A DNA stretch of 60,233 nt, filler included, from Globobulimina sp. (GCA_003354225.1; 13 parts of 13 records of this genome joined end to end with filler, not necessarily neighbours in it), one strand, 5' to 3'; numbered from the whole stretch's first letter, positions 528 through 60,233 are shown. Notes: generated by a model from the letters alone, not told the origin. Made by a program: numbers and translations.

Positions 528-1751
528 ATGGGCAAATCTGTTTCCACCTCTTTAGAAGACGATGACGGAGGATTAATTCGGATAACACCAGGACGGACAC
601 CATCAGGGTCAACACCATCAAGGCCAACACCATCAAGGTCAACACCATCAGGACCAAAATTAAGTTTACAAGCTAAAGCACCACGTATACGTCGACAGCG
701 AACACGAGAACGGCCGCCATCATCAATATTCAAACCAAATCCATTCATTTTAGCATGTGGATATTTAAGAGATATTATTGCATTAAATGACATTCCAACA
801 AAAATTTGCATATTATGCAGCAATTATTATACACAAAAATATAACTCACTCAGTTTAGACTCAAATAATTCATTTAAAAAACAATTAATTATAAATAACA
901 TCGATGATTACTCATTTCATGATATATCAATGGGTCATAATACATTCATTGTGGGCTATACGCCGGTCATCAAACTATCATCCACTACAAATTTAAAAAT
1001 GGATTGGAATTCATCCATATATTTTGATAAAAAAATATTTTCAAATAAAAATAAAAATTGTACGGTGGTATTGACGGTATTTGGTGATATAAATATGGGT
1101 AAAAATACGCAATTATTATGTGGACATAATGGAAATATTTACATTCAATGTAACAATTTAATAATGAGAACGGGTTCGATTATAGCAACAACATCGGCTG
1201 ATAATGATAATGGTGATGCTAACAATGGACAGTTACATTTAGCATCAAAAACAAATTCAAAATCCGATTTAAAACGTTTTGGAAATATTTATATGGATAT
1301 AAAAAAATCATTGATTATGGATACAATGGCGACCATAAAGACAGGTAATATAAAAATTGTCTGTCAACAGGCAAAGATTGGAACGAAATCATCGATATCT
1401 GCATTACGCAAAAATGTAGAAATCAGTACAAAAAATGGTATAATTTGTGATGAGAATTTAAATAAAATATTTTATGCCAAAAATGAGAAAAAAATTGAGA
1501 ATAAAAATGAATTAAACAGTGATGTTTTAAAAATCAAAGCAAGAATAAAAGATAATGTTTCTTATAAATTAACAATGTTTGAAGGAGACGAGGATGAAGA
1601 ATTTGAGTGTTGTATTTGTTGGAATAACGAACCAAATATTATGATTAAACCATGTGGACATTCTACATTTTGTCAAGTTTGTATACTTGAATTAAATCCA
1701 AATGAATGTCCAATATGTCGGATTACCATAACTGGAACAAAAACATTTTAA
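528..1751 (+). CDS. C-terminal C3HC4 RING-finger protein (putative E3 ligase) with possible N-myristoylation
   Basis: CCICW...KPCGHSTFCQVC...CPICR RING motif; first ATG at 528 gives MGKSVS; TPS repeats near the N-terminus. Confidence 0.8.
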   Translation: MGKSVSTSLEDDDGGLIRITPGRTPSGSTPSRPTPSRSTPSGPKLSLQAKAPRIRRQRTRERPPSSIFKPNPFILACGYLRDIIALNDIPTKICILCSNYYTQKYNSLSLDSNNSFKKQLIINNIDDYSFHDISMGHNTFIVGYTPVIKLSSTTNLKMDWNSSIYFDKKIFSNKNKNCTVVLTVFGDINMGKNTQLLCGHNGNIYIQCNNLIMRTGSIIATTSADNDNGDANNGQLHLASKTNSKSDLKRFGNIYMDIKKSLIMDTMATIKTGNIKIVCQQAKIGTKSSISALRKNVEISTKNGIICDENLNKIFYAKNEKKIENKNELNSDVLKIKARIKDNVSYKLTMFEGDEDEEFECCICWNNEPNIMIKPCGHSTFCQVCILELNPNECPICRITITGTKTF

Positions 1752-2014
1752 GTTTATGGCTTTTTTTGTGTCTCTTGTATTTATGACTTAATTTATTTTT
1801 TATGTCAATAATTAATTAAACGATGAGTTCCGAGATAATCCGATCACTATAAAATTAGTGTCGGAGAAACAGCACAGAAACAATGGAAATAATTATTTCC
1901 TGAACATCTATCTAGTGGTAATTGAACACAATAACTTCAAAACACAATGCAAAAAAAAACGATTTTATTATAGAAAAAAGCCACTAAAACGCGAAAAGTA
2001 TCAAACAACAACAT

Positions 2015-2800
2015 TTATTGATAGGTTTCCCTTGCAATTGGTGGGTCAACAGGCACCTGATCCATATATGGCGGTGGAGCACTCGGATAATCATAGACTG
2101 CCTCAATATTATTGTTCATAGCACCTTCACCATTATCCACAACGTTTCTATTCAACGATTGATTTATTTTGTTCATGAATTTTTTAACATGCATTTGTTT
2201 TTGAATATGCATTCTGCTCAAATCATTTTCTGTGATAGTTAATATATCACCGATTGTTTCATATCCTTCTTTAATTAATATATCATAGTACTGATTCAAT
2301 CCAATTCCATTTAACCAATTAAATACAGCCATATTCTGTAGTGCCACTGCATTATTATTGTTATTCGCATATTGATATATCACTGGTATTGCCGCTATTG
2401 GCTGAGGCCTATTTAACGTATTTTGATTATTTGCAATTGCAGTATTCTCTGCTGCGTTATTCATAAAACGAGGATTTTGTACTTGCATTTTCTTGGATGA
2501 ACTGCATTTACAACATGCTAAACAAAGAAAGGGCAATGAATATCCAACAACGGGAACGAGCCAAACACCGAAAAGAAAATATGGAACTGATGGTACAGCA
2601 ATGAATGGTGTCGCAAATAGTGATTGGAAAATAAGGCAAATAAGTGTACATATTCCCCATTCTTTGGAAGAATAACATTGATGCCAAGCAGAATAGCATG
2701 TAGCCATGCCAGCAAATGCAAAAATACTCGTAAATACTCCCGCGCCAAAACCAATGGACAGAAATATAGTGGGATCTTCTATCTCTACAATTGGATCCAT
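2015..2800 (-). CDS. Membrane protein with SAM domain and C-terminal PPxY motif
   Basis: About three hydrophobic helices; WLNGIGLNQYYDILIKEGYETIGDILTITENDLSRMHI is SAM-like; PPPY near the end. Confidence 0.75.
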   Translation of the reverse strand: MDPIVEIEDPTIFLSIGFGAGVFTSIFAFAGMATCYSAWHQCYSSKEWGICTLICLIFQSLFATPFIAVPSVPYFLFGVWLVPVVGYSLPFLCLACCKCSSSKKMQVQNPRFMNNAAENTAIANNQNTLNRPQPIAAIPVIYQYANNNNNAVALQNMAVFNWLNGIGLNQYYDILIKEGYETIGDILTITENDLSRMHIQKQMHVKKFMNKINQSLNRNVVDNGEGAMNNNIEAVYDYPSAPPPYMDQVPVDPPIARETYQ

Positions 2801-3475
2801 TAACAAAATGTTTTTTTACTCGAGTCGGATCATCATTAACGTGTCCCATAGTCGGATCAGCACAACTTTAAACTAACAAATTATCTTACAATCAAATATA
2901 ACAAATACAAATGAATTATTCTTTAGCATTTATTGTGATCACTACATTTGCTATTCAATATTGCAATACCTCTGAATCTGATGAAAATGGCACAGAAATG
3001 GATGAAGTATCGGAATTCAGCATTACAAAGGAGATATGTTGCATCATTGGTGGCGAATTCATCATTACTGTCTGATCTGCATTGTATTTGCATGCAATCA
3101 AATCAACCTTTTGTTGTTAAAGCAATACAAATTATTATACAATATTTTTTACATTATAATATAGGAGGACTCATTCATGATACTATGGTGTTAATAATAT
3201 ACCACTCTACGCCATTCTGTGAGGTATAAAATATCGCAGTTTGTTTGCATGTAAACAAATTTTGCAAATGGATCCGGAAAACAATAAGTATAAATCCGGT
3301 GTTGTTGCGATAATAATAATAATAATAATATGTGATGATAGCTTAAAGAAAGCATATTATGAACAAGATTTGGGTTCAAATCCCAAACACCACTTTTATT
3401 ATTTTTATTTTATTCTAAAGCAGTTGATAAAAACAACAAAAATTCAAATGACACTTTTTTTTTTCTCATCTTCAT

Positions 3476-4544
3476 TTAAATTTTACATATTACTATTCGT
3501 GTTTCATTATATCCAGGATACATTTCAAGAATTTGTTCATCTGTATCAAAATAATTTGAATTAAATAATAAGGGTTTCTTAATATTTGATGGCGGATTGG
3601 CATCACGAACATGTAAACATCGATTATATTCATTATCTCCCCATAAATAATATTTGTTATCCGCTGTCTTAACAATATTATGATTCCCACCACATTTAAT
3701 ATCAATAATTGTTTCCTTTTTTAATGTTGCATTTGGTTGTGGTAAATATACAATTTCATCTGAACCATTACCACATTCATAATCCCCATTCCATCCAAAA
3801 CAATATACCTTATTTATTTATTTATTAAAATATATTTGTAAAAATAAGTAAACACAACACAAAAAGATCAAAACTTTGTTGTTTAATGATAGTAATATAT
3901 TATGTAAATAACCACAACATATTTTAGCAATTTTAATATTGTTTTGAATAAAATATTGTATTCTTGTTGGCAAATATCTATTATTATCATCGCCATGGCC
4001 TAAACTACCATATCCACCATGTCCCCACGACCAAACACCATAATTATCATCAATTGCTAAGGTATGCCAACATCCACAATATATATCCTTAAATTTTATT
4101 TTTATTTGAATTTCTTGAATATTTGGGGATGATTCAATATCTTCACCTAATCCTAAACCACCATAACCTCCATCATAACCAGCAACATATATTTTACCAT
4201 TTGTACTTAAAAATGTTGTATACCACTGAGCTGTGGCTACTTTTTGAATCGATAATGTTGTATTAATTGGTATCCATTTATTATTATATCTTTCATTTGT
4301 TTTTATACCAAATTGATTATTATAATTCCGTCCGACAGCATATAATTTATTCTCATTTGAAATACAAAATGAATGTCCTGATCCGCTTGGTGCTGCAAAT
4401 ATATTTTTTATTTTCATATCTTTTATTTGATGCCATATATTAATATTATTATAATGGCCAACACCTAATACACCCCTTCTATTATAACCGCAACATTCAT
4501 ATGTTTCATCATCAAATAAAATATATGCAGCTTCATAACAAGTA
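3476..4544 (-). CDS. RCC1-repeat protein, 5'-partial, one intron (3874-3809)
   Basis: CGCWHTLAI, VWSWGHGGYGSLGHG and CGYLHNILL repeats; splicing the GT..AG intron restores NNK|VYCFGWNGDYECG and the frame stays open to a stop at 3476. Confidence 0.85.
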
Positions 4545-4644
4545 NNNNNNNNNNNNNNNNNNNNNNNNNNNNNNNNNNNNNNNNNNNNTTAATTAATTAA
4601 NNNNNNNNNNNNNNNNNNNNNNNNNNNNNNNNNNNNNNNNNNNN

Positions 4645-5592
4645 AACGATGTCCACCGATCCCTCCCTCGCCGCTGTCTCTCTTTCTTTTTCTTCGGTTT
4701 TATCATGGTTCGAATTTGCATCACTTTCATGTGAATTTGTGGTGTCATTTTCTTTTAACTCCGCGATTAATTTATTCGGATTTAAAATCGCTTCTTTGTA
4801 TGCATCAAAAGTGTCGACGCTGTTGACACTTTCTTGTAATTTCGCGATCCAATCACCTAAACCTTTCCAATTGATATCAAATGTGTTGATTTTATATTGA
4901 ACTTTGGTTTTATGTAAACCAAAATCAATCCCTTCATACATCTCGAGAGCCGGAGTGTTGTTGATGGTAATCTTTCGATCACCAGTTTTGATCCATTTGT
5001 TCCACGATTTAATTGCAATGCGTGCAACGAATGATGCTAAATCAATAAATTCCGTAATCCCCGTCGGATTTGGATGGGATGATGTTCCTTTCAGGGTTTT
5101 TAATAACGTGTCAATTAAATTAAGCGTTGGATAATCAAGATTTTCTTCGAGATATACGGCTAATTTGGCGTCAAAAACGTTGAGAACGTTTGCTTTGACC
5201 ATTTTAATCATGTCCCAGCATTTAATTTGTCCCATTTCTGGAACCACTCTGCCATTCGCATCCGTTTGCGTCCATAGTGGATCTCCCGGGTCTTCCACGA
5301 TTAACGTTCCCTGCACACATTCGCGTAATGTTTTGTAATCCGTGGGATTGCCCCCTGTCACGATTTTGTATGCGATTCTTTCAATTTGATCTTCAGTTTT
5401 CTTGAATTCATTGAATTTGATTAGCAATTCAATGTCATCATAAAATTCTAAGAGTGCATCATAAATACTTGTGTTTGGCTCAGCTTGTCCTGGAGCGTGA
5501 GGCAAACGAATAGACGATACAATACTATTTGCGATCAATCTTTTCATATTGGTGCTTCGTAAGGCATTGCCAATATTGATTGATACCGACAT
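4645..5592 (-). CDS. Hypothetical protein, 3'-partial; possibly the gag-like ORF1 of the YR element
   Basis: Long intronless ORF from ATG 5592 running off the contig, 440 bp downstream of the YR gene on the same strand; no motif recognised. Confidence 0.5.
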
Positions 5593-6032
5593 CGATTACG
5601 GTTATAGTTGTTTAGCGTTTCTTGTCTAGACTGACTTCTTCTTGTTTGCTTATTGAAAAACGAAAACTTTTAAACTGATTCTAAAAAACTTGAAGATATT
5701 AAATATTAAAAACAACATAAGATATAACAATTAATTATAAACTCTCCCATAAAACCCTTGTTCCACGAATACAACATTGTGTTTTAACTCGAGATAAATT
5801 AATATGATTTAGTGAGAATGTGGGAAATGATAAGGATGCAATGGTAACTCGTATGGCAATGGTAACTCGTTATCGGTCGGGATAAATTTTTATTAAAATT
5901 TAATACAACATTGTTTTGGTTGTCAAAGAAAGAGAAACCAAAACAAAACATACAAACTTGACATAACTAATAACATACATTAACATACAAATAACTAACT
6001 TAATATAATAAAATATCCCTTCCGTGTAATCT

Positions 6033-7406
6033 TCATTTGTTTAATAATCCTAATTTTGTCTTATTATTATATTTATTAATAAAATAACTTTCTTCTTCTT
6101 CATCAAAGTCAAATTTATTACATATTTCAAATTTGGCAATGTATTTAGAATTGAAATAAATATGGCATAACTTTATCATTTCCCCTTCCGTGTAATTTAC
6201 ATAAATATAAAATGAATCCTTCAAAAACCATCTGCCAACCCATGCTATTAACCCTCTATCTACTCCACAACGAGTTAATTGTGACGCAAATCCTTTGCGT
6301 AAACCATGTGGTTTTCCTAAACGAGTTGCTTGAAAATAGCCAACATAATCAATTAATTTTCGATATATATTACGAAATTTATCTGTGGTCATAGGTACTT
6401 TTTTGTGTTGAAATAAGAAAGATTTCTTATTCCATGAATAATACTTTGAAAATTTCTTTGATAATATAGATAGTGTATGATATAAATCAAATAACATAAG
6501 AACTGGATCAATTGAATGATTTGATCTGCCCAATATAACAAACGCTGAGTGTCCTGTATTGCGCATTTTGCTGTTTTGTATATTCAATTGTATACTGTGT
6601 AAAGTGTGGGAATTAAGCGATTTGTTGTCAGGAATAATTGTAACTTCTCCTGAAATTGATACAATTCGATGAAAAATAGTAATATCACATTTGCGAATAC
6701 CGTATGAGTTGTTTTTCTTGTCAATGGGATGGAATACTTCTCCAATTCGCATACCTGAGACCGCCATGATATTAACTGCAGTCAATGACATTCTTATTGG
6801 CATACAAATTTTGTAAAATAAAATTTCTTCCTTCACAATGAGAAAAAATGCTGATTTTTGTCGGAAAATAATGGAATTTTGATCTGATTTGCTGTACAGT
6901 AAATCCTTTGTGACTTTGTTATTGAATCGAATCAAATGTTGTTTCGTGAATGGTAATGCTGCATTATTTGGATCGGATTTATTCTGTTTCTTACAATGAC
7001 TGATTACACTCATTAAAGCCGGATTTTCTGACCACGAAGTTGGAGTTAATGCTAATTTATTGTAATGATCAATTGCTGCTAATTTATATCTGATGGTGCT
7101 GTAACAATTTGGTTTAATCAAAATCATGGCCCAATGAACTATACAAACAATTAAATTGATATCCGGTGTCGGGAAAGTTAATATTTCTGATTTGGAAAAT
7201 CCTAAATTTGTTAAAGTATTGCAATAAATATAAAAATTCGATTGATATGTCTCTGATGTTGATAATTTTATGCCTCTTTCTAATGATTTGTTGTATCCAA
7301 TGGCATGAAGAGGTAAACGATCCCAAATTTGATGATTGTATATATTGTTTCTAAAACGACCTAAAATAATATAAATGTAATGTTTTGTGAAATAAATGAA
7401 CAACAA
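6033..7406 (-). CDS. Tyrosine recombinase (start uncertain)
   Basis: Catalytic set SGMRIGE (R), SKM (K), HGLRKG (HxxR), GRW (W), SFYIY (Y). Confidence 0.85.
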   Translation of the reverse strand: MLFIYFTKHYIYIILGRFRNNIYNHQIWDRLPLHAIGYNKSLERGIKLSTSETYQSNFYIYCNTLTNLGFSKSEILTFPTPDINLIVCIVHWAMILIKPNCYSTIRYKLAAIDHYNKLALTPTSWSENPALMSVISHCKKQNKSDPNNAALPFTKQHLIRFNNKVTKDLLYSKSDQNSIIFRQKSAFFLIVKEEILFYKICMPIRMSLTAVNIMAVSGMRIGEVFHPIDKKNNSYGIRKCDITIFHRIVSISGEVTIIPDNKSLNSHTLHSIQLNIQNSKMRNTGHSAFVILGRSNHSIDPVLMLFDLYHTLSILSKKFSKYYSWNKKSFLFQHKKVPMTTDKFRNIYRKLIDYVGYFQATRLGKPHGLRKGFASQLTRCGVDRGLIAWVGRWFLKDSFYIYVNYTEGEMIKLCHIYFNSKYIAKFEICNKFDFDEEEESYFINKYNNKTKLGLLNK

Positions 7407-9188: not shown

Positions 9189-9291
9189 NNNNNNNNNNNN
9201 NNNNNNNNNNNNNNNNNNNNNNNNNNNNNNNNTTAATTAATTAANNNNNNNNNNNNNNNNNNNNNNNNNNNNNNNNNNNNNNNNNNNNTTA

Positions 9292-10104: not shown

Positions 10105-10341
10105 ATATGTTTTTAGGATTTTTTCGTAGTGCAATGAAGTAGCTAAATACGCAATATCCAGGACCCACTGTGCATGAAAACAAATGGAGATCAATGCTGT
10201 CATTATTAACATGATAAAATGTGGTTATTTCATGTAATAATTTTATCACAAAATATAATCATAATCAGAGGAAGTCATAATCAGCACATTATGAGATTTT
10301 TGTACTCATAATCATAATCAGAGAAAGTAGCATCGATATCA

Positions 10342-41782: not shown

Positions 41783-42590
41783 TATTTTGTTTTCGTACTC
41801 CCCAGGTCCATTTTCCTATAGTGTTATTGTCATTATTGCCTAAATTTAAATTACAAGTTTTGATGAAATCTCTTACTATGAAACCATTGTTGTTTATCGT
41901 ATCGTGGTTACCTATGATTCCGTGAATATCGTTGCCTATATGGCCGTTAAAATCTCCTACTATAATGATTTCGTAATTGTTAAATTGACACCAGTTAATA
42001 TGGGAATTTAGACGTTGATACAGTTCAGTGTTTATTGTATTAGCTTCATCAAAACTTTGATTTTTAAAATATACAGCACATATCGCAGTCGGACCGTTAT
42101 TTTGACATAATATCCAATTATATAAATTACTTACTGAATCGGTTGCCCCATCAATGTCCAATTTGGTTGGTTTCATGTGGTTTTTTCCCCATATGCTAAT
42201 TCCACCGGCACTGTTACCTATTTGTAATTTATGGAAACCAATATAGTTATCAAAATTTTGTATGTCTAAAGGTGATTTACATTTTGTTTCTACGCAACAG
42301 ATAATATCGGGTGATAGACAATTAATATTATTCAACATGATATCAATTTTATTTTTTATAGAACATATATTGTTATATAGCATAGATATAGTTTTATATT
42401 TAATATAGTTTCTAATTTCAGATTCTTGTCTTTGGTGATGATGGCTTTGAACCCCATTTTGATATCGTTGTTGAATATATTGATTTGGCATGATAATTGG
42501 CACAGTGATAATTGGCATTTGTTTATCGTTTATATCGTTATAAATTTTATCGTAATATCGTATTACATTGCCGTCCCTTTCTATCCCCCC
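41783..42590 (-). CDS. LINE A ORF2, APE endonuclease domain (3'-partial; -1 frame relative to ORF1, first ATG at 42518)
   Basis: YNNICSI, CCVET, AGGISI, VGDFNGH, WTW. Confidence 0.85.
42568..42590 (-). promoter_or_regulatory. Putative -1 programmed frameshift cassette: G_GGG_GGA, 6-nt spacer, GGGACGGCAA
   Basis: Same geometry and same downstream motif as in LINE B. Confidence 0.65.
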
Positions 42591-45500
42591 TGGCCTTGTG
42601 TTAGTAATTTATCGTGTATACCGTTCACCCAGCATAATATTCCCTCTCGCCAAATCTCGTTTGCTAAAATTTTCTTTCCATTATCGGTTAGATGAATACC
42701 AAATGTAAATGATTCCAGAGCACTTTCCATATCGATTCCTGTAGTATTGTGTAATTTCGTTGTTTCTTCGTCTATCGCATGTGCCAATTGTATCGCTCGG
42801 ACTGGAATTTTTTCTTGTTGACCAAAATGAACCATATCTTCAGCGAAAACTGCTTCGACTTTTTTGATGAATTTTAGATTTCCTGGATCAGTCGGGTTAA
42901 CCATATAGCCTCCTGATATTGGATGTGTGATATTGACTAATATAGCAGCTTTCGGATTTAATCTTCGTACTTCTCGTATTATCGACATTAATTTTTCTCG
43001 TAATTGATTATATCGTCTTGTAGTGTTTGCTTCAATATTGCCTTCTCGTCTGAAGTAAGCTAACATATCGGTAACATCCATAACTCCTTTTAGTATTATT
43101 ATCGTTTCGTCTCCTTCAATCATAGCTGGGACACAATATTGCATATTTCGCCAACGTTGACTCACTAGACCTTTACCCAAAGTTTTCGTACCAATATATA
43201 TCAAATATCGTCCCCAATTATTTTCAGCATATGCTTCAGTTAGTGCTTCTTCGAGACCAACTGCTGTCGAATCACCTCCAATAAAAATTCGGATACCTGG
43301 TAATCGTATTTTCGTATCATCTATCGCTGGTAACATATTATGTAGTCGTCTTTCGTTTATCGTTCGAAGTTTTAGTCCAGGTAATATCGGTGGTTTCGTA
43401 TCGTCTGCATATATTCTATTACATCTCGTACACCATCCCATATTGAAATCTTCAACGGTATCGACGCACGATTTTAGATGCTGGTGAGGTAAAATTTGTT
43501 TAAAGTCTATAGTTTTAGAATATAGTAGTTTCTTACCTACGGTATCTCTTGTTTCCTTAATAGCATTTCGTTTTCTCGTATTTTCGTCACGTTCTCGTTT
43601 TTCTGTTTCTGCGGATCGTCCCGATGATGCCACACTTCTAACGCTACCTGCTACAGAATCTTGTCGTTGTTGTTGTTCGATATTTGAAGATCCATAAATA
43701 CCATATAGTGCTCGGATCCTTTTATTTTTATCGCTATCAGAAAGGTTATCGAAATCTCGATGTTGTTGTACTAGTTGAGGAGTTCGTCTACTAATGTTCT
43801 CTGATTGTGATTGTCGTTGATATGGTTTTCCTCTGTCTCTGTCGGCTTGATATTGTGATGTTGTTGGAGATGTACTTGATGTCGGTCTTATTGGTATATA
43901 TTGAGATGTTGGTGAAATACTGGATATGGGTCTATCGCCACGTTGTTGTCGCCTTCTGTTGTCGTATTCCTCTCTAGTTTTTCGTATCCATGGTAAATTA
44001 TTGATATCGAAATCCACATCATATCGTTTATGGAACCATTCTATACGAATATTTCGTGAATCGATTTTTTCAAAAGATACTGGTCGTCGTTTAGAATGTT
44101 GTTTGGATAATATCGAAGCGAAAGATGCAAGATCGTCAACGGTTGGACCTATGTTAGATCCTATCGAATGTATCGACCAATATCGCATATACATCATGAA
44201 TTGAGCATTGGCTTTGTTTTTTGTTTGCTGATCTTGTTTATCGTAATGTGAGGCATAAAAAGAACAAAGTGATGTTAGTATCGCACCAAATCTATTGTTA
44301 TCGATATCGTAATCATTCTCAACTTCTAATGTCGTCATATATATCGTTGGGTCTGAACCGTCAAATCCAATGCCAATTTTTTTATCTAGTGATAGATATC
44401 GAATTCGTAGATCTTGTGTTTTACCTATTCGTCCTAATAGTACTTTGATTGTTTCGTTTTGATTTGTTCGTAACGTCCAAAAATCAGAGAATCGTTCTGA
44501 TATCCATTCAATATCGAATTTGTGTTTATGGTCGTTATAGTTAGATATCGGGATTTCGTTCATAATATAGTCATAATGATCGCTGTCCATTTGTTGTGAA
44601 AGTTCATATAGTAATTCTTCATCTTCACATTCTACGCACATGAGGACTTTGATATAGTGATCGAAGCTTTTGTATAGAAAACCACTTTCGTATGGGTGTT
44701 CGTATTTGTCTTGTATATCCTCGTCAATAGTTGGTCTCGATTTTGGATAAATGTCGCCAATATCGCAATGGTGATTTAGAGAGAAAATATCTTTTCGCAT
44801 ACTTCCTACTAACAAATCGTTACCTCCTCTGTCGGTTATTTCTTCAGTTTCACCTTCTTCTGATGCTTCCGAAGGTATCGTTTCAGTTTCCTTTTCTTGT
44901 TTTTCTTGTTTTGATAATCTGATTTCTAGTTTCTCGAGTTTATCGGATAATTTAACTATAGTATCGCTTAGTGTACGTACTGATTCTTTAGATGCCGATT
45001 CTATCGATAGTTCGTCAATTTCGCCTTTTAATTTCGTATTCCAACCTTGTAATTTCGTACTCCATGCAGATACATTATTTTGGACTTCAGTCAGTATCGC
45101 TACTGATGTTTTATCGTCTTCAGGCATATTGTTCTCAATATCGTTTAATTTAGTTTTAAGCAAGTCAATTTCGGTTCCTATAGTATCGGTATATTGTTCC
45201 CCTGCTATAAGATTTTGTGATATGAAAGATGAATTTATCGTGGTGAAATTCGTACCATTTGCAACAGATTCCATACTGTGGAAACATATCGTTAATAATT
45301 TCGATGTTAATTCCATACATAATTTCGAATTAGTTTCGAATAGATCACATATCGCTCTAACATCTGCCGATTCATTGTTTTTTAATATAGCTAGTTTATC
45401 GTTGAATTGTTGGAGAATATCGTATATATTTTGTCGTAATTCTCTACATGTAGCAATATCGTTTTTCAAATATAATCCAGAATAATGGATGAATTTAGTT

Positions 45501-46024
45501 CTTTCGTTAGGATATCGTTTTTCGGCTTCATTTAGATTTGATTTAGCAATGTCTTCGTCTTGTAAGTCCAAATTATATTGTATTTCGCCAGTACTATCGA
45601 TTTTTCCATTTTCGTAAATAGCAGCTACTTTTTCTAAGATATCGTATTCACCTCGATCTATCGTAAGATGTTCCATTGCTGTTATAGTATCCAAGATTTC
45701 AAATGGGATATCTGAAACAGAATTAGCGTCATTTATAGTCATATATCGTTTTTTGTTATCGTTTATAGTAGTAAAACTCTTAATATTGTCAATAATAATA
45801 CAATCGTCCTTTTTTCCAATATCGCTACTAAGATTTCGTACAATTTGTGATATCGGTTTCTTTTTACCGGTTGATTTCGGCTCTTTCTTTCGTGATCTCG
45901 AATATTTTTTACTATCGAGGGGACTTCTCTTAGGCGTAATATCGTCACTAGTTTCATTTCCCTTTTCACTACTCATATTTACCTTATTATATCGTATTAT
46001 TGTTTTGTCGACTTTATTTTCCAA
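42581..46024 (-). CDS. LINE A ORF1: coiled coil, R/S/Q-rich region and C-terminal SGNH/GDSL esterase-like domain
   Basis: IFIGGDS (block I), IILKGVMD (block III-like), GIHLTDNGKKILA (block V-like); first ATG at 45976. Confidence 0.7.
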   Translation of the reverse strand: MENKVDKTIIRYNKVNMSSEKGNETSDDITPKRSPLDSKKYSRSRKKEPKSTGKKKPISQIVRNLSSDIGKKDDCIIIDNIKSFTTINDNKKRYMTINDANSVSDIPFEILDTITAMEHLTIDRGEYDILEKVAAIYENGKIDSTGEIQYNLDLQDEDIAKSNLNEAEKRYPNERTKFIHYSGLYLKNDIATCRELRQNIYDILQQFNDKLAILKNNESADVRAICDLFETNSKLCMELTSKLLTICFHSMESVANGTNFTTINSSFISQNLIAGEQYTDTIGTEIDLLKTKLNDIENNMPEDDKTSVAILTEVQNNVSAWSTKLQGWNTKLKGEIDELSIESASKESVRTLSDTIVKLSDKLEKLEIRLSKQEKQEKETETIPSEASEEGETEEITDRGGNDLLVGSMRKDIFSLNHHCDIGDIYPKSRPTIDEDIQDKYEHPYESGFLYKSFDHYIKVLMCVECEDEELLYELSQQMDSDHYDYIMNEIPISNYNDHKHKFDIEWISERFSDFWTLRTNQNETIKVLLGRIGKTQDLRIRYLSLDKKIGIGFDGSDPTIYMTTLEVENDYDIDNNRFGAILTSLCSFYASHYDKQDQQTKNKANAQFMMYMRYWSIHSIGSNIGPTVDDLASFASILSKQHSKRRPVSFEKIDSRNIRIEWFHKRYDVDFDINNLPWIRKTREEYDNRRRQQRGDRPISSISPTSQYIPIRPTSSTSPTTSQYQADRDRGKPYQRQSQSENISRRTPQLVQQHRDFDNLSDSDKNKRIRALYGIYGSSNIEQQQRQDSVAGSVRSVASSGRSAETEKRERDENTRKRNAIKETRDTVGKKLLYSKTIDFKQILPHQHLKSCVDTVEDFNMGWCTRCNRIYADDTKPPILPGLKLRTINERRLHNMLPAIDDTKIRLPGIRIFIGGDSTAVGLEEALTEAYAENNWGRYLIYIGTKTLGKGLVSQRWRNMQYCVPAMIEGDETIIILKGVMDVTDMLAYFRREGNIEANTTRRYNQLREKLMSIIREVRRLNPKAAILVNITHPISGGYMVNPTDPGNLKFIKKVEAVFAEDMVHFGQQEKIPVRAIQLAHAIDEETTKLHNTTGIDMESALESFTFGIHLTDNGKKILANEIWREGILCWVNGIHDKLLTQGQGG

Positions 46025-46424
46025 ATTCTTTGGTTTCTTTTTAAAGCTTTGAGTTCACTTGCCACACAACCGATTTTTCGTACGCTTTTCTCTCCTATGG
46101 TTTCTCTGTCGTCAGACAAACCGCAGAATATTCCCAAACTTTCTACATGGTATTTTTTGTCGTTGTGGGTAGATATATCGTGTAGATTACGGTATTGTGT
46201 TGTTTTCATTTTACGTTGTGCAAGATTTGATGCATTTAATTTCGTTGTTGACGGTCTATATTTCTTAGTACGCATCGACGCTACTGACGCAATTTTTTGT
46301 TTGTTTAATTTGTGCCTGAAANNNNNNNNNNNNNNNNNNNNNNNNNNNNNNNNNNNNNNNNNNNNTTAATTAATTAANNNNNNNNNNNNNNNNNNNNNNN
46401 NNNNNNNNNNNNNNNNNNNNNGTA

Positions 46425-55090: not shown

Positions 55091-55696
55091 CAGCACAATC
55101 TCGTCGTGTCCGCGATGACAGGCTTGGATTAATGGCGACCCATTGTCGCACTGGATAGGATGGGATAGGATGGGATTTATATAATTATTATTATTATTTA
55201 TTATCAACCAATTCGATCCGCAATCCGCCACACGCCATCGTCCTGATAATATTATATTTGTTACATTCACAAAACACAAAACAAAACAAAACAAAAACAT
55301 AATCAAAACGTATCTTGCTTTTCCAGGTCACATGATTTAAGACCGAGGCAGCTTACTACAGTTTTTCAACATATCTTAACATTTTGTGGCTTATTTAGAT
55401 GGCATGTACAAACAAAAGGGAATTATAATTTGATGATTAGGAAATTGCAATTAATTCTAACGTAATTTAATAACTCGTCGTAGCTAGCAGCAGCAGGCAG
55501 GGCAGCAACTTGCGCTATTTTTGTTATTTTATTTATTTATATATATAAGATTTGAGGAAGAGCGGAAGAAAAAAAGAGAGAGATATGAATCCAATANNNN
55601 NNNNNNNNNNNNNNNNNNNNNNNNNNNNNNNNNNNNNNNNTTAATTAATTAANNNNNNNNNNNNNNNNNNNNNNNNNNNNNNNNNNNNNNNNNNNN

Positions 55697-56367
55697 TATT
55701 AAGACATTTAGTTGATAAATATACGACTGAAACAGACAGCAGAGGGCGCAATTTATATCACGGAATATCATGCGTAAGTGCGCCGATTGTAACTGAAATA
55801 GATAATTTGAAAAAACAAATAATTGATTTAGAAGAAAGACTAAAAGATTTAACCACTAAATCTCAGTCCAGGTATGAATCTGAGTCAGATAAAACGAAAG
55901 CAGATGAAATATTATTAGATATTAAAGGAGTTATTAAGGGATCAGACAATGACAGGAGAAATTGGCAAAAAGCCAAAAATACTTTCTATGTCCGACCAAC
56001 TATACAATCACGAGTAAATTCAGTTCCTGAAAGGAAATATATGCAAAAATATGAAAAATTAACTAATAAGCCTGAATTGGAATTAAAATTACAAAAATGC
56101 GGGCGTGAAATATATCATGGAATATCATGTATATGTACACCCTTCGACAATGACTTATCAATTATGTCATGCTTCGATTATCATGTAGAATTATGCATTA
56201 GCTCCGAGTCAACATGGGCATATTGGGGAAAGCATTATAGACCTAATGGGTGGATTAATTCAATCTCAACATCCGATAATATTAATAAACATAGTACAGG
56301 AAGGATTAGATCGGCATTTAGAACAAGTAATAAATCATTAACATATGACCCTAGTAAGGGAAACTAG
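55697..56367 (+). CDS. LINE B ORF1 C-terminal part
   Basis: Open from the contig edge to TAG 56365-56367; coiled coil and a duplicated GRxxYHGISC motif. Confidence 0.7.
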
Positions 56368-56381
56368 CAAGGGACGGCAAA
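56358..56381 (+). promoter_or_regulatory. Putative -1 programmed frameshift cassette: G_GGA_AAC, 6-nt spacer, GGGACGGCAAA
   Basis: Canonical X_XXY_YYZ heptamer in ORF1 phase, directly before the stop; ORF2 is in the -1 frame. Confidence 0.75.
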
Positions 56382-59300
56382 ACCCGAATACACATTAATA
56401 TTAATAACGACGAAAGTAAAGAAAAAATTAAAGATGAAATTGAAACAATTAAAGATAGAAAAGAATTCAAAACTTTATCTATTTTATATAATAATATTTG
56501 TTCTATTAAAAATAAATTTGATTTGATTGATGAGAATATAAATAAATTAAAACCAATGTTGTTATGTTTTGTTGAAACTAGATTAAAAACTGTATTAGAT
56601 GTACATGACTATAATGAGTATGTCGGCTTCCATAAGATGCAAACAGGTAGGAAAACTGGTGGAATAAGTATATGGGGTCATGAAACTATCAAACCAACTA
56701 AACTAGATATTGACGGTTTTAATGATGACATTAGCAACCACTATTTATGGGTTTTATGCCAAAATGTAGGACCTGTAGCTATCTGTACTGTGTATTTCAA
56801 AAACCAAAGTAATAAAGATAATAATACACATTCATTCAACTTTGAATTAAGTCTTAGATTAATAAATCATATTAAATGGTGTATGAAACAAAACTATGAA
56901 ATCATCATAGTAGGTGATTTCAATGGTCATATTGGAAATGACATATATGGTATTAAAGGGAATCACGAAAACATAAATGATAATGGTTACTTAATAAGAG
57001 AATTTATTAAAAACTCCAATCTTATGCTTACAAATGATTCTGACAAAACGAAAGGCCTATGGACTTGGGGATTCCAAAAACAGAATACAAAACCTCAAAT
57101 ATTAGACCTTTTATTAAATTCTCATACGAGTAAAGTCAAATCTATGTATATAGATGAAACAAATACTCAATTAGGTACAGGAAATGCGGATCATTGTTTT
57201 ATCTATGCAGAATTTGACATTCTGCAAAATAAGAAAAACAAATCCGTTAATATTAATATTAATAATGACAAAAAGAGATGGAATATAACTGACGATATTA
57301 ATTGGAAACCATTCAAAGACAAATTAACTCAATTAGCAACAATTGAAGAAGAAGATATTGACGAAAATACTATATTGAATCATATAACAATTGCAGCCGA
57401 ACAAACAATTGGGTATAAAAAAAAACCCAATAAAAAAGCAAGACTGTCAATTAGAGCCAAAAAATTAAAATCAAAAATTACAGAATTAAGAAAGCAATTA
57501 AGACACGACAATGGTGACAAAAAGATATTATTAAAAGAACTATTTGAAACCATAAAAGATCAAAGAGAATTACGACAAAGATCTGAAATGGCAAGAGTAG
57601 AGAAGGCGCATAATAAATGGCTTGCTAATCCACGAAGAAAATTTCATCAATTATATAATACGATGAAACAATTAAAAAGAGGGATCAGAGAACCAGTAAC
57701 TTTATTAGATAATAATAAGGAACCAATATATGGTACCGAAAACAATAAAAATCATTTATCATCATTTTGGAACGATATTTTTACACTAGGCATCTGGCCT
57801 GAGGCAAACGACGAAATGAAACGAGTCGGATTAGATAATATAATAAAAGGAAATGACAGAATTGAATTAGAAAAAGATATAACAATTAAAGAATTAAATG
57901 AAGCCATATCCAGGCTAAAAAACGGCACTTCTGCAGGGACTACTAATATCCCTCCTGAATTCATAAAAAATTGGCCAGCAGAAATGAAAGAAAATGTGTT
58001 ATTACTCTTTAATAGATGGTATAATACAGGGTACTACCCAGATATTGGCAAAGTACAAGAAGTAACACTCTTACACAAAAAGGGATCAAAAAGTAAAATA
58101 ACAAACTACAGAACCCTGTGTTTAGGGTGTAATTTATGTAAAGTATATTTAACCATTCTCACAAAAAGATTAGAAAAAACAACTGAAGAGAAGAACATAT
58201 TAGGAAATATTCAACATGGATTTCGAGCCAATAAACGGATCGAAGACTGTATTTTGGTAATACAACATACAGTAATGAAAGCCAAAAGATTATCAAAAAT
58301 TAAGAAAAGCACCTTAGCTTTACTCGATATATGTAAAGCATATGATAGAGTATGGCGAAAGGGGCTGTGGAAAAAATTAAGAGACTATGGCTTCCCTGAA
58401 AAATTAGTGAGAGCTATAGAAAGTAGTTATCATAACCCACAAGCAGTAATATCGTTCCAAGACATAGTAACAGAAAAATTAGATATGGAAGTAGGTTTAA
58501 GACAAGGGTGTACAATGTCACCTAGCCTATGGAATCTATATATAGCTGACTTAGGCCGAGAAATAGAAAACAGTAATTTAGGAATTGAAATAGGATCTGA
58601 AGAATGCTCAAAAATAATTTCTGGTATATTCTTTGCAGATGACATGTTATTATTTGCCTCTTCAGAATACAATATGACAAAATTATTAAAAATAGTTGGC
58701 AATTATGCTCAACGTTGGAAAATTGAATTCTCAGGTCCCAAGAGTTTAATTATTCCTATGAAAAGAAATATAGATAGCGAAAAGCTATGGCAATTAGGAA
58801 CAATGTATATATCAGAATCTGACACTAAAACTATTAATATTAAAGAAGAGAAAGAAGCGAAATATCTAGGAATCACCATTGCCAAATCAGGAGTAGATAT
58901 ATTATCACAACATAGAAAGGAATTAGCTGTAAAAACAAGGAAGGAAGTATATAAATGCTTCCAACCAGCATCAGCAACAGCAAGACAAGCCGTATATGGC
59001 ACAAAAATTTGGACAACTTATGTACAACCAAAAGTACTACATGGTATCTCTGCTATAGAATATACCAATAATACTTTTAAAAAAGTTGAAGTCCAACAAA
59101 GAGAATTTATTAGAATGATAGCTAAACTTCCAAGACATACCCATAGAGCGGTATTATATGGAGAAACAGAAATTATGCCTATGCAAATGGAAGCAGATAA
59201 AAGGACAATTAATTATTTATCTCATGTACTAAAACTTAATAATAACAATTTAGTTAAAATAGCTATAAATGAACAATTAATAACTTTTTATAACTATCCA

Positions 59301-59897
59301 AGAAAAAAATCTTGGATTAATCATGCTATTAATTGTTGTAATAAATATAATATCGATTATAGATATATTCCATCTCCAAGTAAGATAAAAGAGGTTATTA
59401 AACAATCATGGATACTTGAATATAATTCCATGTTATTAAATGCACCTACATTAAGAATATATAAACATAAAACCATCCCAAAAATCAATAATAAATTAAA
59501 TCTACATAATGGGTCCGAATTCTGGCTGAAAGCAAAAGGAGGAACCTTATTACTGAATGATAGGAAACATAAACCCTGCACAAGATGTAATAGTAATGAA
59601 ATTGAGAATATTGAACATTTACTATGGTTCTGTACCGATAATTACAGTAATAATGATTATAAAAATAAAATACTCAATATTTGGGGATTATTACCCCAAG
59701 AAATTGAAGGATTAAAAAAACCAATAATAATTCCTAATACTCAAAATCAGTATATTGATGCAAGTATTAAATGGTTATTTGATGATGGCACTCCAGGATT
59801 GGTGATGAACCAAGCCGGACAAATCATCAAACTTCTATATAATATGCGCCCTGAAATAAAAGCATATAATATAATAATTAATGATAGTAACGATTAA
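56358..59897 (+). CDS. LINE B ORF2 (APE endonuclease, reverse transcriptase, CCHC knuckle); frame opens at 56358 with no ATG until 56556
   Basis: YNNICSI, VGDFNGH, ADH; QHGFR, LDICKAYD, GLRQGCTMSP, FADD, YLG; CTRC..ENIEHLLWFC. Confidence 0.92.
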   Translation, partial: GKLARDGKTRIHININNDESKEKIKDEIETIKDRKEFKTLSILYNNICSIKNKFDLIDENINKLKPMLLCFVETRLKTVLDVHDYNEYVGFHKMQTGRKTGGISIWGHETIKPTKLDIDGFNDDISNHYLWVLCQNVGPVAICTVYFKNQSNKDNNTHSFNFELSLRLINHIKWCMKQNYEIIIVGDFNGHIGNDIYGIKGNHENINDNGYLIREFIKNSNLMLTNDSDKTKGLWTWGFQKQNTKPQILDLLLNSHTSKVKSMYIDETNTQLGTGNADHCFIYAEFDILQNKKNKSVNININNDKKRWNITDDINWKPFKDKLTQLATIEEEDIDENTILNHITIAAEQTIGYKKKPNKKARLSIRAKKLKSKITELRKQLRHDNGDKKILLKELFETIKDQRELRQRSEMARVEKAHNKWLANPRRKFHQLYNTMKQLKRGIREPVTLLDNNKEPIYGTENNKNHLSSFWNDIFTLGIWPEANDEMKRVGLDNIIKGNDRIELEKDITIKELNEAISRLKNGTSAGTTNIPPEFIKNWPAEMKENVLLLFNRWYNTGYYPDIGKVQEVTLLHKKGSKSKITNYRTLCLGCNLCKVYLTILTKRLEKTTEEKNILGNIQHGFRANKRIEDCILVIQHTVMKAKRLSKIKKSTLALLDICKAYDRVWRKGLWKKLRDYGFPEKLVRAIESSYHNPQAVISFQDIVTEKLDMEVGLRQGCTMSPSLWNLYIADLGREIENSNLGIEIGSEECSKIISGIFFADDMLLFASSEYNMTKLLKIVGNYAQRWKIEFSGPKSLIIPMKRNIDSEKLWQLGTMYISESDTKTINIKEEKEAKYLGITIAKSGVDILSQHRKELAVKTRKEVYKCFQPASATARQAVYGTKIWTTYVQPKVLHGISAIEYTNNTFKKVEVQQREFIRMIAKLPRHTHRAVLYGETEIMPMQMEADKRTINYLSHVLKLNNNNLVKIAINEQLITFYNYPRKKSWINHAINCCNKYNIDYRYIPSPSKIKEVIKQSWILEYNSMLLNAPTLRIYKHKTIPKINNKLNLHNGSEFWLKAKGGTLLLNDRKHKPCTRCNSNEIENIEHLLWFCTDNYSNNDYKNKILNIWGLLPQEIEGLKKPIIIPNTQNQYIDASIKWLFDDGTPGLVMNQAGQIIKLLYNMRPEIKAYNIIINDSND

Positions 59898-60202
59898 CCA
59901 TTATTAATTAATGGATTTTCATGGATTTTCATGGATTCTCATCAAATTCACCTGTTTGACCACAAGGATGATGGAAATCAGATGAACAACAAATGACAAC
60001 CAGAGTCCCGATTGATCAAAACAGATGAGATGTTGAATGAATCCCAATACAATCAAGTGCCAAATGAATTATCTCTGTGAATATTATATTTCTATTTTTG
60101 TATTTCATATATTATTAACATGTAATTAATTAATGTGTATTAATATTTCACAAGCTATACTTATTTATTAAGTGCTTTCAAAATAAAATTTGCCGTCCCA
60201 AA

Positions 60203-60203
<1 letters not shown>

Positions 60204-60233
<30 letters not shown>
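60204..60233 (+). repeat. (TAC)n 3' tail or target microsatellite of LINE B
   Basis: ctaccactactactac... running to the contig end. Confidence 0.85.

Follow-up and report, generated by a model that had tools for sequence, protein, structure and literature searches.

We analysed a 60,233-base stretch of DNA from a Globobulimina sp. assembly (the window), which contains a long interspersed nuclear element (LINE) designated LINE B. Its second open reading frame (ORF2), encoding endonuclease and reverse transcriptase, lies in the −1 frame relative to ORF1. The sequences suggest that ORF2 is probably expressed by −1 frameshifting at the slippery heptamer G_GGA_AAC, stimulated by a duplex between the ORF1/ORF2 junction and the 3′ terminus of the same RNA. 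We describe here the anatomy of the element, the phase of the heptamer and its spacing from the paired segment, the lack of local structure, and the compensatory evolution of the two arms. From these we infer the frameshifting itself, its stimulation by the duplex, and a switch in the use of the RNA. Frameshift pairing with a 3′ end over kilobases is so far known only from some plant RNA viruses, and we rate the putative LINE signal as a variant of that kind, in a type of genetic element new to it.

Pairing between the ORF1/ORF2 junction and the 3′ terminus

The window joins 13 separate contigs of about 4.5 kilobases (kb) each in descending order of length. The joins are linkers of the form N44-TTAATTAATTAA-N44, giving runs of N at 4545-4644, 9189-9288 and so on to 55597-55696, and pieces that adjoin in the window are not neighbours in the genome. 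LINE B lies on the last contig (55697-60233), a single contig that cuts both ends of the element. Its features are as follows (nt, nucleotides; UTR, untranslated region).

55699-56367, plus strand: 3′ part of ORF1; the open frame is 55645-56367 and ends with TAG at 56365-56367, the 5′ end being cut by the contig edge
56358-56364, plus strand: slippery heptamer GGGAAAC, read as G_GGA_AAC in ORF1 phase; its first base is the start of the open ORF2 (−1) frame
56365-56370, plus strand: spacer TAGCAA, 6 nt, including the ORF1 stop codon
56371-56381, plus strand: 5′ arm of helix 1, GGGACGGCAAA
56387-56399, plus strand: 5′ arm of helix 2, AATACACATTAAT, specific to LINE B
56358-59897, plus strand: ORF2 (endonuclease and reverse transcriptase), 1179 codons, −1 frame
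60129-60141, plus strand: 3′ arm of helix 2, ATTAATGTGTATT, in the 3′ UTR; identical in the copy L030
60152-60177, plus strand: 3′ UTR hairpin AAGC-TAT-ACTTA-TTTAT-TAAGT-GCTT; its core occurs in 5/5 available family 3′ ends
60182-60187, plus strand: polyadenylation-type hexamer AATAAA, just 5′ of the 3′ arm of helix 1
60189-60199, plus strand: 3′ arm of helix 1, TTTGCCGTCCC, the final bases ahead of the tail
60200-60233, plus strand: AAAC, then TAC CAC (TAC)n to the contig end; tail or target-site microsatellite

LINE B is a non-long terminal repeat (non-LTR) retrotransposon of the APE (apurinic/apyrimidinic endonuclease) type, with an endonuclease followed by a reverse transcriptase, a defined 3′ end and multiple diverged copies. 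In Pfam, ORF2 matched RVT_1 (E = 1.5e-29) and, below the Pfam cut-off, Exo_endo_phos_2 (E = 1e-4); its close homologues bear PF03372/PF14529. The ORF1 codons AAG GGA AAC TAG place the heptamer in the phase X_XXY_YYZ. The ORF2 frame opens precisely at 56358, a TAA at 56355-57 standing just before it, and its first AUG occurs after the first conserved endonuclease motif, inside the endonuclease domain. Initiation within ORF2 would thus yield a truncated enzyme, and only a product fused to ORF1 would contain the whole enzyme. Slippage during transcription of homopolymers was set aside, as LINE B has only G3/A3 runs.

The segment at 56371-56381 is the exact reverse complement of 60189-60199, 3.8 kb away. 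With up to one mismatch, this 11-mer occurs three times in the window against 0.58 expected, namely in both arms and in the junction of a second element, LINE A. A perfect 13-nt complement (56387-56399 and 60129-60141; helix 2), which the original prediction had not named, is colinear with helix 1. In the co-fold, a hairpin occupies the 47-nt stretch separating the two 3′ arms, and the dimer has −40.2 kcal/mol, compared with −2.7 and −8.7 kcal/mol for the parts alone. RNAduplex gave −23.9 kcal/mol (z = −6.0) for the 30-nt junction window with the last 40 nt of LINE B, a value equalled by none of 4322 other windows; the next window (−22.8 kcal/mol) pairs with the 3′ hairpin, not the terminal motif. 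The original prediction for this DNA had named the heptamer, the 6-nt spacer, the 11-mer, AATAAA and the position of the 3′ arm, all of them correctly.

Chance complementarity in an AT-rich element is one alternative, and a single inverted 11-mer match is no rarity across 4.5 kb (58 inverted pairs are listed). Covariation between the arms in relatives had been set beforehand as a check. Close relatives were sought by protein search, which gave three homologues (62, 55 and 55% identity; the next among the 30 matches listed has 27%), and by a scan of prokaryote genome contigs, which yielded L020 (62%), L021 (59%) and L022 (55%).

ORF1 of L020, a 1913-codon open frame (657-6398), ends CGG GAA AAC TAT TAA, and the ORF2 frame is again −1. 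Immediately after the TAA, at 6399-6416, lies GGGACAACAATTTTACTT, with position and phase as in LINE B. The last bases ahead of the A-tail, AAGTAAAATTGTTGTCCC (10295-10312), are a perfect 18-nt reverse complement of this junction, 3.9 kb from it. The L020 junction reads GGGACAACAA... and its terminus ...TTGTTGTCCC, compared with GGGACGGCAA and TTGCCGTCCC in the window element. From LINE B to L020, pairs 6 and 7 change from G-C to A-U and pair 11 from A-U to U-A; pairs 1-5 and 8-10 are the same. Three of the 11 common pairs are changed on both sides, eight are unchanged and none is broken, and the pairing continues for seven further positions that are unpaired in LINE B, reaching 18 base pairs (bp) in total. 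Because both arms changed in compensating fashion between the two elements, selection on their pairing is strongly supported.

From base composition, 18 matches at these pre-specified positions of L020 would arise by chance with a probability of about 5e-11. In the 10.4-kb locus, the best partner of the L020 terminus is the junction (14/14; next 10/14), and RNAduplex gave −26.6 kcal/mol (z = −7.8) for its 30-nt junction window with the last 40 nt, with 0/9532 other windows equal to it. An independent element thus has a different, compensating match at the same two positions. L020 effectively refutes the chance reading, to which we give hardly any weight, and bears out the earlier view that the 11-mer match was unlikely to be accidental.

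LINE A, the related element on the minus strand of contig 41783-46321, has the following features.

42567-42590, minus strand: junction, with G_GGG_GGA at 42590-42584, TAG at 42583-42581, AAA, and GGGACGGCAAT at 42577-42567
42581-45976, minus strand: ORF1, 1131 codons and TAG, with a GDSL/SGNH-esterase-like C-terminal part
41783-42608, minus strand: ORF2 (−1) frame, opening at 42608; the contig end cuts the endonuclease domain; 57% identity to residues 16-243 of LINE B ORF2

LINE A keeps the heptamer position, the TAG, the spacing and GGGACGGCAA. Its junction motif is conserved at 10/10 positions within an otherwise unalignable linker, which likewise argues against chance. The contig edge cuts off the 3′ end. 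No complement of the motif was found in the available part of LINE A, which fits a partner in the missing 3′ part; we predict that the element ends in ATTGCCGTCCC ahead of an A-rich tail.

The three junctions read G_GGA_AAC TAG CAA followed by GGGACGGCAAA in LINE B, G_GAA_AAC TAT TAA followed by GGGACAACAAT in L020, and G_GGG_GGA TAG AAA followed by GGGACGGCAAT in LINE A. Heptamer position, phase and the 6-nt gap to the motif (GGGAC) are common to all three, each of which has its ORF2 in the −1 frame. The L020 stop codon is shifted by one codon, the ORF2 linker past the motif is unalignable and of differing length among the three, and the overlap of ORF1 with ORF2 measures 10 nt (LINE B), 19 nt (L020) and 28 nt (LINE A). 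The 100 nt 3′ of the heptamer folded to −2.8 kcal/mol in LINE B (z against shuffles, 0.06), −8.6 kcal/mol in L020 (0.64) and −10.9 kcal/mol in LINE A (−0.15). Local structure better than shuffles was absent downstream of the heptamer in all three, and for LINE B this agrees with the claim that no strong local hairpin follows the shift site.

Relatives with probable readthrough, the 3′ end and other possible roles for the pairing

In L022 and L021, ORF1 and ORF2 lie in one frame with a single stop codon between them. The stop contexts are UAA CAA UUA (1494-1502) in L022 and UGA CUA G (600-606) in L021, which we take to be leaky contexts of the tobacco mosaic virus type and the UGA-CUAG readthrough type, respectively. 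Neither element has an AUG ahead of the endonuclease motifs, and the GGGAC junction motif is absent from both. The family thus appears, from these reading frames, to make ORF2 either by stop-codon readthrough or by −1 frameshift. We found no description of readthrough for LINE ORF2 in the literature searched.

L022 ends in the terminal motif TTGAACTGACC. The best complement of this terminus in the element was 9/14 (−8.9 kcal/mol), and 519/5192 windows were as good; a search for a long-range partner of its readthrough site gave none above background. The 3′ end of L021 is missing. This element has the esterase-like ORF1 type of LINE A and L020, yet it uses the readthrough layout and lacks the motif. 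Therefore, the pairing accompanies the frameshift and not the ORF1 type or the whole family. In the ORF2 tree, LINE A and L020 were joined (support 94/96), and LINE B, L022, L021 and P0002 were placed without resolution.

A search of G001, the record set that holds L020-L022, gave two further 3′ ends, those of L030, a copy whose ORF2 shares 97% identity with that of LINE B, and of L031, a relative at 47% that bears the terminal motif TTGTACTGACC. In all five available 3′ ends, the hairpin core ACTTATWTWWTAAGT is followed by A(A/G)TAAA and then by 10-11 nt of terminal motif, and the element closes with a short tail rich in A. The hexamer is AATAAA in LINE B, L030, L022 and L031, and AGTAAA in L020. 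Searching with the hairpin pattern gave five exact matches, comprising four LINE 3′ ends and one chance match. L030 differs from LINE B at 44/314 aligned 3′ UTR columns, all of them outside the two arms and the hairpin; the identity of the arms adds little, as the whole last ~85 nt is conserved. A contig from sequencing run X1, belonging to a relative of ~81% identity, matches the end of ORF2, omits 254 nt of the 3′ UTR (59897-60152) and resumes at 60152. The last ~40 nt of LINE B seem to be conserved between subfamilies, and the remaining UTR does not.

Tails in the family are A5-A8 or AAAC(TAC)n. The original prediction took (TAC)n as the tail of LINE B, and it does follow the 3′ arm to the contig end. 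However, it is probably not the usual tail, because the 97%-identical copy L030 has AAAAAA (1144-1150) where LINE B has AAAC(TAC)n. The (TAC)n may be a microsatellite into which the element inserted, and not a tail copied from a template. No target-site duplication of at least 9 nt was found for L020.

The duplex may have been selected for template selection or cyclisation in reverse transcription, forming with the hairpin a structure recognised by the reverse transcriptase or a mark of RNAs that contain the whole ORF2, and its location beside the heptamer would then be of secondary importance. The template ends with the 3′ arm, which lies beside the conserved hairpin, and covariation shows pairing, not its purpose. 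In L2/CR1-type 'stringent' LINEs, the reverse transcriptase recognises a stem-loop in the 3′ UTR, and LINEs in which this enzyme recognises the 3′ end of its own element typically carry a conserved terminal hairpin. The LINE B family likewise has a conserved 3′ hairpin near the end, to which the terminal arm that pairs with the junction is an addition. A template role gives no account of a 5′ arm placed exactly 6 nt past an in-phase heptamer in 3/3 elements, and no alternative frameshift stimulator is present. L022 has the same hairpin and ORF2 family, yet it has the readthrough layout, no 3′ complement and no motif, and L021 likewise combines readthrough with the lack of the motif. We consider this explanation unlikely.

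The position of the 3′ arm between AATAAA and the tail, and the inclusion of the AGTAAA hexamer in the L020 duplex, would also fit a pairing that controls how the 3′ end is processed or how stable the RNA is, for instance because it hides the cleavage site or the poly(A) signal or shields the 3′ end; the frameshift would then be independent of structure. In that case the fixed 6-nt distance of the partner from the heptamer has no reason. L022 and L031 keep AATAAA and an A-tail with other terminal motifs, and L022, for which the junction is available, has no partner. We regard a role in processing or stability as quite improbable. Lower still is our estimate for an action at the DNA level, in which the arms of first-strand complementary DNA (cDNA) would form a panhandle in second-strand synthesis or integration. 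RNA complementarity is always mirrored in the cDNA, which is an argument of logic only; the phase and spacing at the heptamer and the lack of pairing in the readthrough relatives are left unexplained by it.

Proposed mechanism and known long-range signals

Our preferred reading is that programmed −1 ribosomal frameshifting at G_GGA_AAC would yield LINE B ORF2 fused to the ORF1 product. The stimulator would be an intramolecular duplex that begins 6 nt past the heptamer, in place of a local hairpin or pseudoknot, with its other strand supplied by the last 11 nt of the transcript ahead of the tail. In LINE B, the 13 bp of helix 2 would lengthen the duplex, with the conserved 3′ hairpin between the helices. 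A ribosome with the heptamer in its peptidyl (P) and aminoacyl (A) sites would meet the duplex at the mRNA entrance, pause and slip. Because one duplex strand is the extreme 3′ end, ORF2 protein would be produced only from full-length RNA with an intact 3′ end, and the nascent reverse transcriptase would be kept close to the priming end. By binding or copying the 3′ end, the reverse transcriptase would melt the duplex and stop further ORF2 synthesis, a switch from translation to template.

Several points weigh against this reading. Both arms are present on one contig in only two elements, LINE B and L020, and the sequences derive throughout from two assemblies that are probably related. Since the tree leaves the monophyly of the frameshifting elements undecided, the association of pairing with recoding mode is based on a small number of independent events. 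Compared with X_XXY_YYZ, the LINE B heptamer is canonical, that of LINE A fits the pattern but is all G, and P-site re-pairing in L020 needs a middle G:U pair; two of the three heptamers (L020 and LINE A) are therefore not textbook. All-G heptamers such as G_GGG_GGA are poor shifters in reticulocyte lysate. The L020 duplex spans the AGUAAA hexamer, which is awkward if the hexamer directs 3′ processing. Helix 2 has no homologue in L020, and it may be lineage-specific or a product of chance (~1e-3, a hand estimate from base composition).

Barley yellow dwarf virus (BYDV), red clover necrotic mosaic virus and pea enation mosaic virus RNA 2 obtain their polymerase by −1 frameshifting, as proposed for LINE B. 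A zero-frame stop codon right past the heptamer is a feature of BYDV, too. As in the viral type, pairing over kilobases is supported by covariation in LINE B (3.8 kb) and L020 (3.9 kb). The Luteovirus/Dianthovirus/Umbravirus ALIL (apical loop-internal loop) pseudoknot has a local bulged stem-loop at the shift site, whereas none was found in LINE B, L020 or LINE A. The viral shift site pairs with an apical loop in a 3′ stem-loop, the LINE B and L020 junctions with a linear terminal segment past the 3′ hairpin. The putative LINE stimulator is a linear duplex of 11-18 bp with an unlooped 3′ terminus, and its host is a nuclear non-LTR retrotransposon and not an RNA virus. The best reading of this comparison is that the LINE signal would work like the BYDV element but falls outside its structural class. 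For BYDV-type signals, a review presents the proposal that a polymerase coming from the 3′ end melts the long-distance pairing and clears ribosomes (PMC5009743). The switch suggested here for the LINE would resemble this 'traffic control' proposed for BYDV.

Overlap with a −1 ORF and a structure 5-9 nt past the heptamer, which characterise the canonical eukaryotic −1 signal, were both found here (6 nt in 3/3 elements), but the partner is distant. RNA oligonucleotides annealed past a slippery site induce −1 frameshifting, maximally at 12-18 nt (PMC3001050). A plain duplex is plausible as the stimulator because such annealed oligonucleotides suffice there (PMC3001050). Antisense oligonucleotides can likewise induce +1 shifting, according to a section of another report (PMC1616946). 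Those oligonucleotides are artificial and act in trans, whereas in the LINE duplexes (11 bp plus 13 in LINE B; 18 bp in L020) the RNA supplies the antisense strand from its own 3′ end. The readthrough elements of the tombusvirids carnation Italian ringspot virus and tobacco necrosis virus D are described in the review's section on them as bipartite, with a partner ~4 kb away, and serve the polymerase (PMC5009743). There the long-range signal drives readthrough, whereas L022, the one readthrough-type LINE with an available 3′ end, has no long-range complement.

SART1 reportedly uses UAAUG coupling for ORF2. For non-LTR elements, the 2016 recoding review mentions only HeT-A, TART and L1 in the portion concerned with them, and human L1 ORF2 is stated there not to be expressed by ribosome bypassing (PMC5009743). 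An excerpt of a further paper deals with 2A-like sequences in LINEs (PMC3708506). HeT-A with its gag frameshift, TART, L1, SART1 and the 2A type share the need for little ORF2 protein from a bicistronic LINE RNA, but none is known to have a heptamer with a partner at kilobase range. Full-text literature searches gave no non-LTR retrotransposon with a described long-range frameshift signal, supplementary files and subscription journals being outside their reach.

How LINEs dose the scarce ORF2 protein and why this protein prefers its own RNA (cis-preference) are open questions. If the proposed mechanism is true, the answer would lie in the sequence, as the second half of the frameshift signal would be the 3′ end of the template. 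Long-distance recoding would then occur not only in a few genera of plant RNA viruses but also in mobile elements of cells. The close relatives with either −1 frameshift or readthrough would represent a natural experiment on the exchange of recoding modes. More tentatively, and as a possibility that we hold to be somewhat doubtful, a kilobase-range switch may have evolved here independently of the plant RNA viruses. The stimulator would be the last bases of the RNA, so that reverse transcriptase would arise only on intact RNA, beside the priming end, and would then melt the duplex and convert the mRNA to template; this would provide the basis for cis-preference, with frameshift and readthrough interchangeable in the family.

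ORF1 types, sequence sources and minor observations

ORF1 is modular in the family. LINE A, L020 and L021 (3-602) share a large ORF1 with an esterase-like C-terminus, L022 (177-1496) has a coiled-coil-like ORF1, and LINE B ORF1 is unrelated. LINE A and L020 ORF1 are homologous at E = 1e-135, and L021 belongs to the same esterase-like type (E = 1e-24). LINE B ORF1 gave no match to that of LINE A and is unrelated to that of L022. In Pfam, LINE A ORF1 showed a weak match to PF13472 (E = 0.009, below the cut-off), and neither L020 ORF1 nor LINE B ORF1 matched a family. The motif R-x-(L/I)-Y-H-G-I-S-C occurs twice in LINE B ORF1 (55745-55790 and 56100-56140) and corresponds to no Pfam family. The esterase-like ORF1 of the relatives may be like that of CR1/L2-group elements. 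Esterase-type ORF1 proteins in CR1/L2-group elements are treated in sections of two papers (PMC3905857, PMC4120745).

L020-L022 are AT-rich LINE contigs inside G001, which is titled a gammaproteobacterial metagenome-assembled genome. These contigs are evidently eukaryotic, and host DNA was probably binned together with a bacterium. The window source and G001 probably share a host, because G001 carries the 97%-identical LINE B copy. A DNA search for junctions in G001 found none besides those of L020-L022, and a search for relatives of G001 matched 1/101 genomes, namely G001 itself.

The metagenome scan yielded five loci, all distant (24-35% identity), and 0/5 had the junction motif. Among the distant loci from the metagenome and prokaryote scans together, 5/7 had a junction and a 3′ region; 0/5 of these showed a complement of at least 10 nt, and one 9-mer was present. 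A protein scan of viral contigs gave no relatives. A pattern scan of viral contigs gave 14 matches in phage-type contigs, which were judged to be chance. The atlas search returned generic endonuclease/reverse transcriptase clusters only, none of them linked to a taxon.

Matching the window to sequencing runs, one DNA-type run had 0.80 of the window words and one marine metagenome had 0.06; no RNA-type run was among the matches listed. Diverged LINE copies are numerous in run X1 and in G001. Among the differences listed between run X1 contigs and LINE B, none fell in either arm (653 further differences lie outside those listed), and these contigs give no covariation information.

The pattern TARNNNGGGACNNCAA gave no match. 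The pattern TTGNNGTCCCAAA gave 10 matches in G001, of which six were in an unrelated 33-bp satellite, two in long contigs and two at LINE ends. In L020, tandem repeats of ~50-60 bp lie 5′ of ORF1 (130-560), and these could be promoter monomers of the 5′ UTR, as in other LINEs. The satellite (L034, L035 and L036, on G001 contigs C82, C421 and C489) has a consensus of approximately TTTCAACTTGCAGTCCCTTAAGAAACCTGTCCA, and its resemblance to the LINE 3′ motif is a matter of chance; it forms head-to-tail arrays and, on one contig, inverted arrays.

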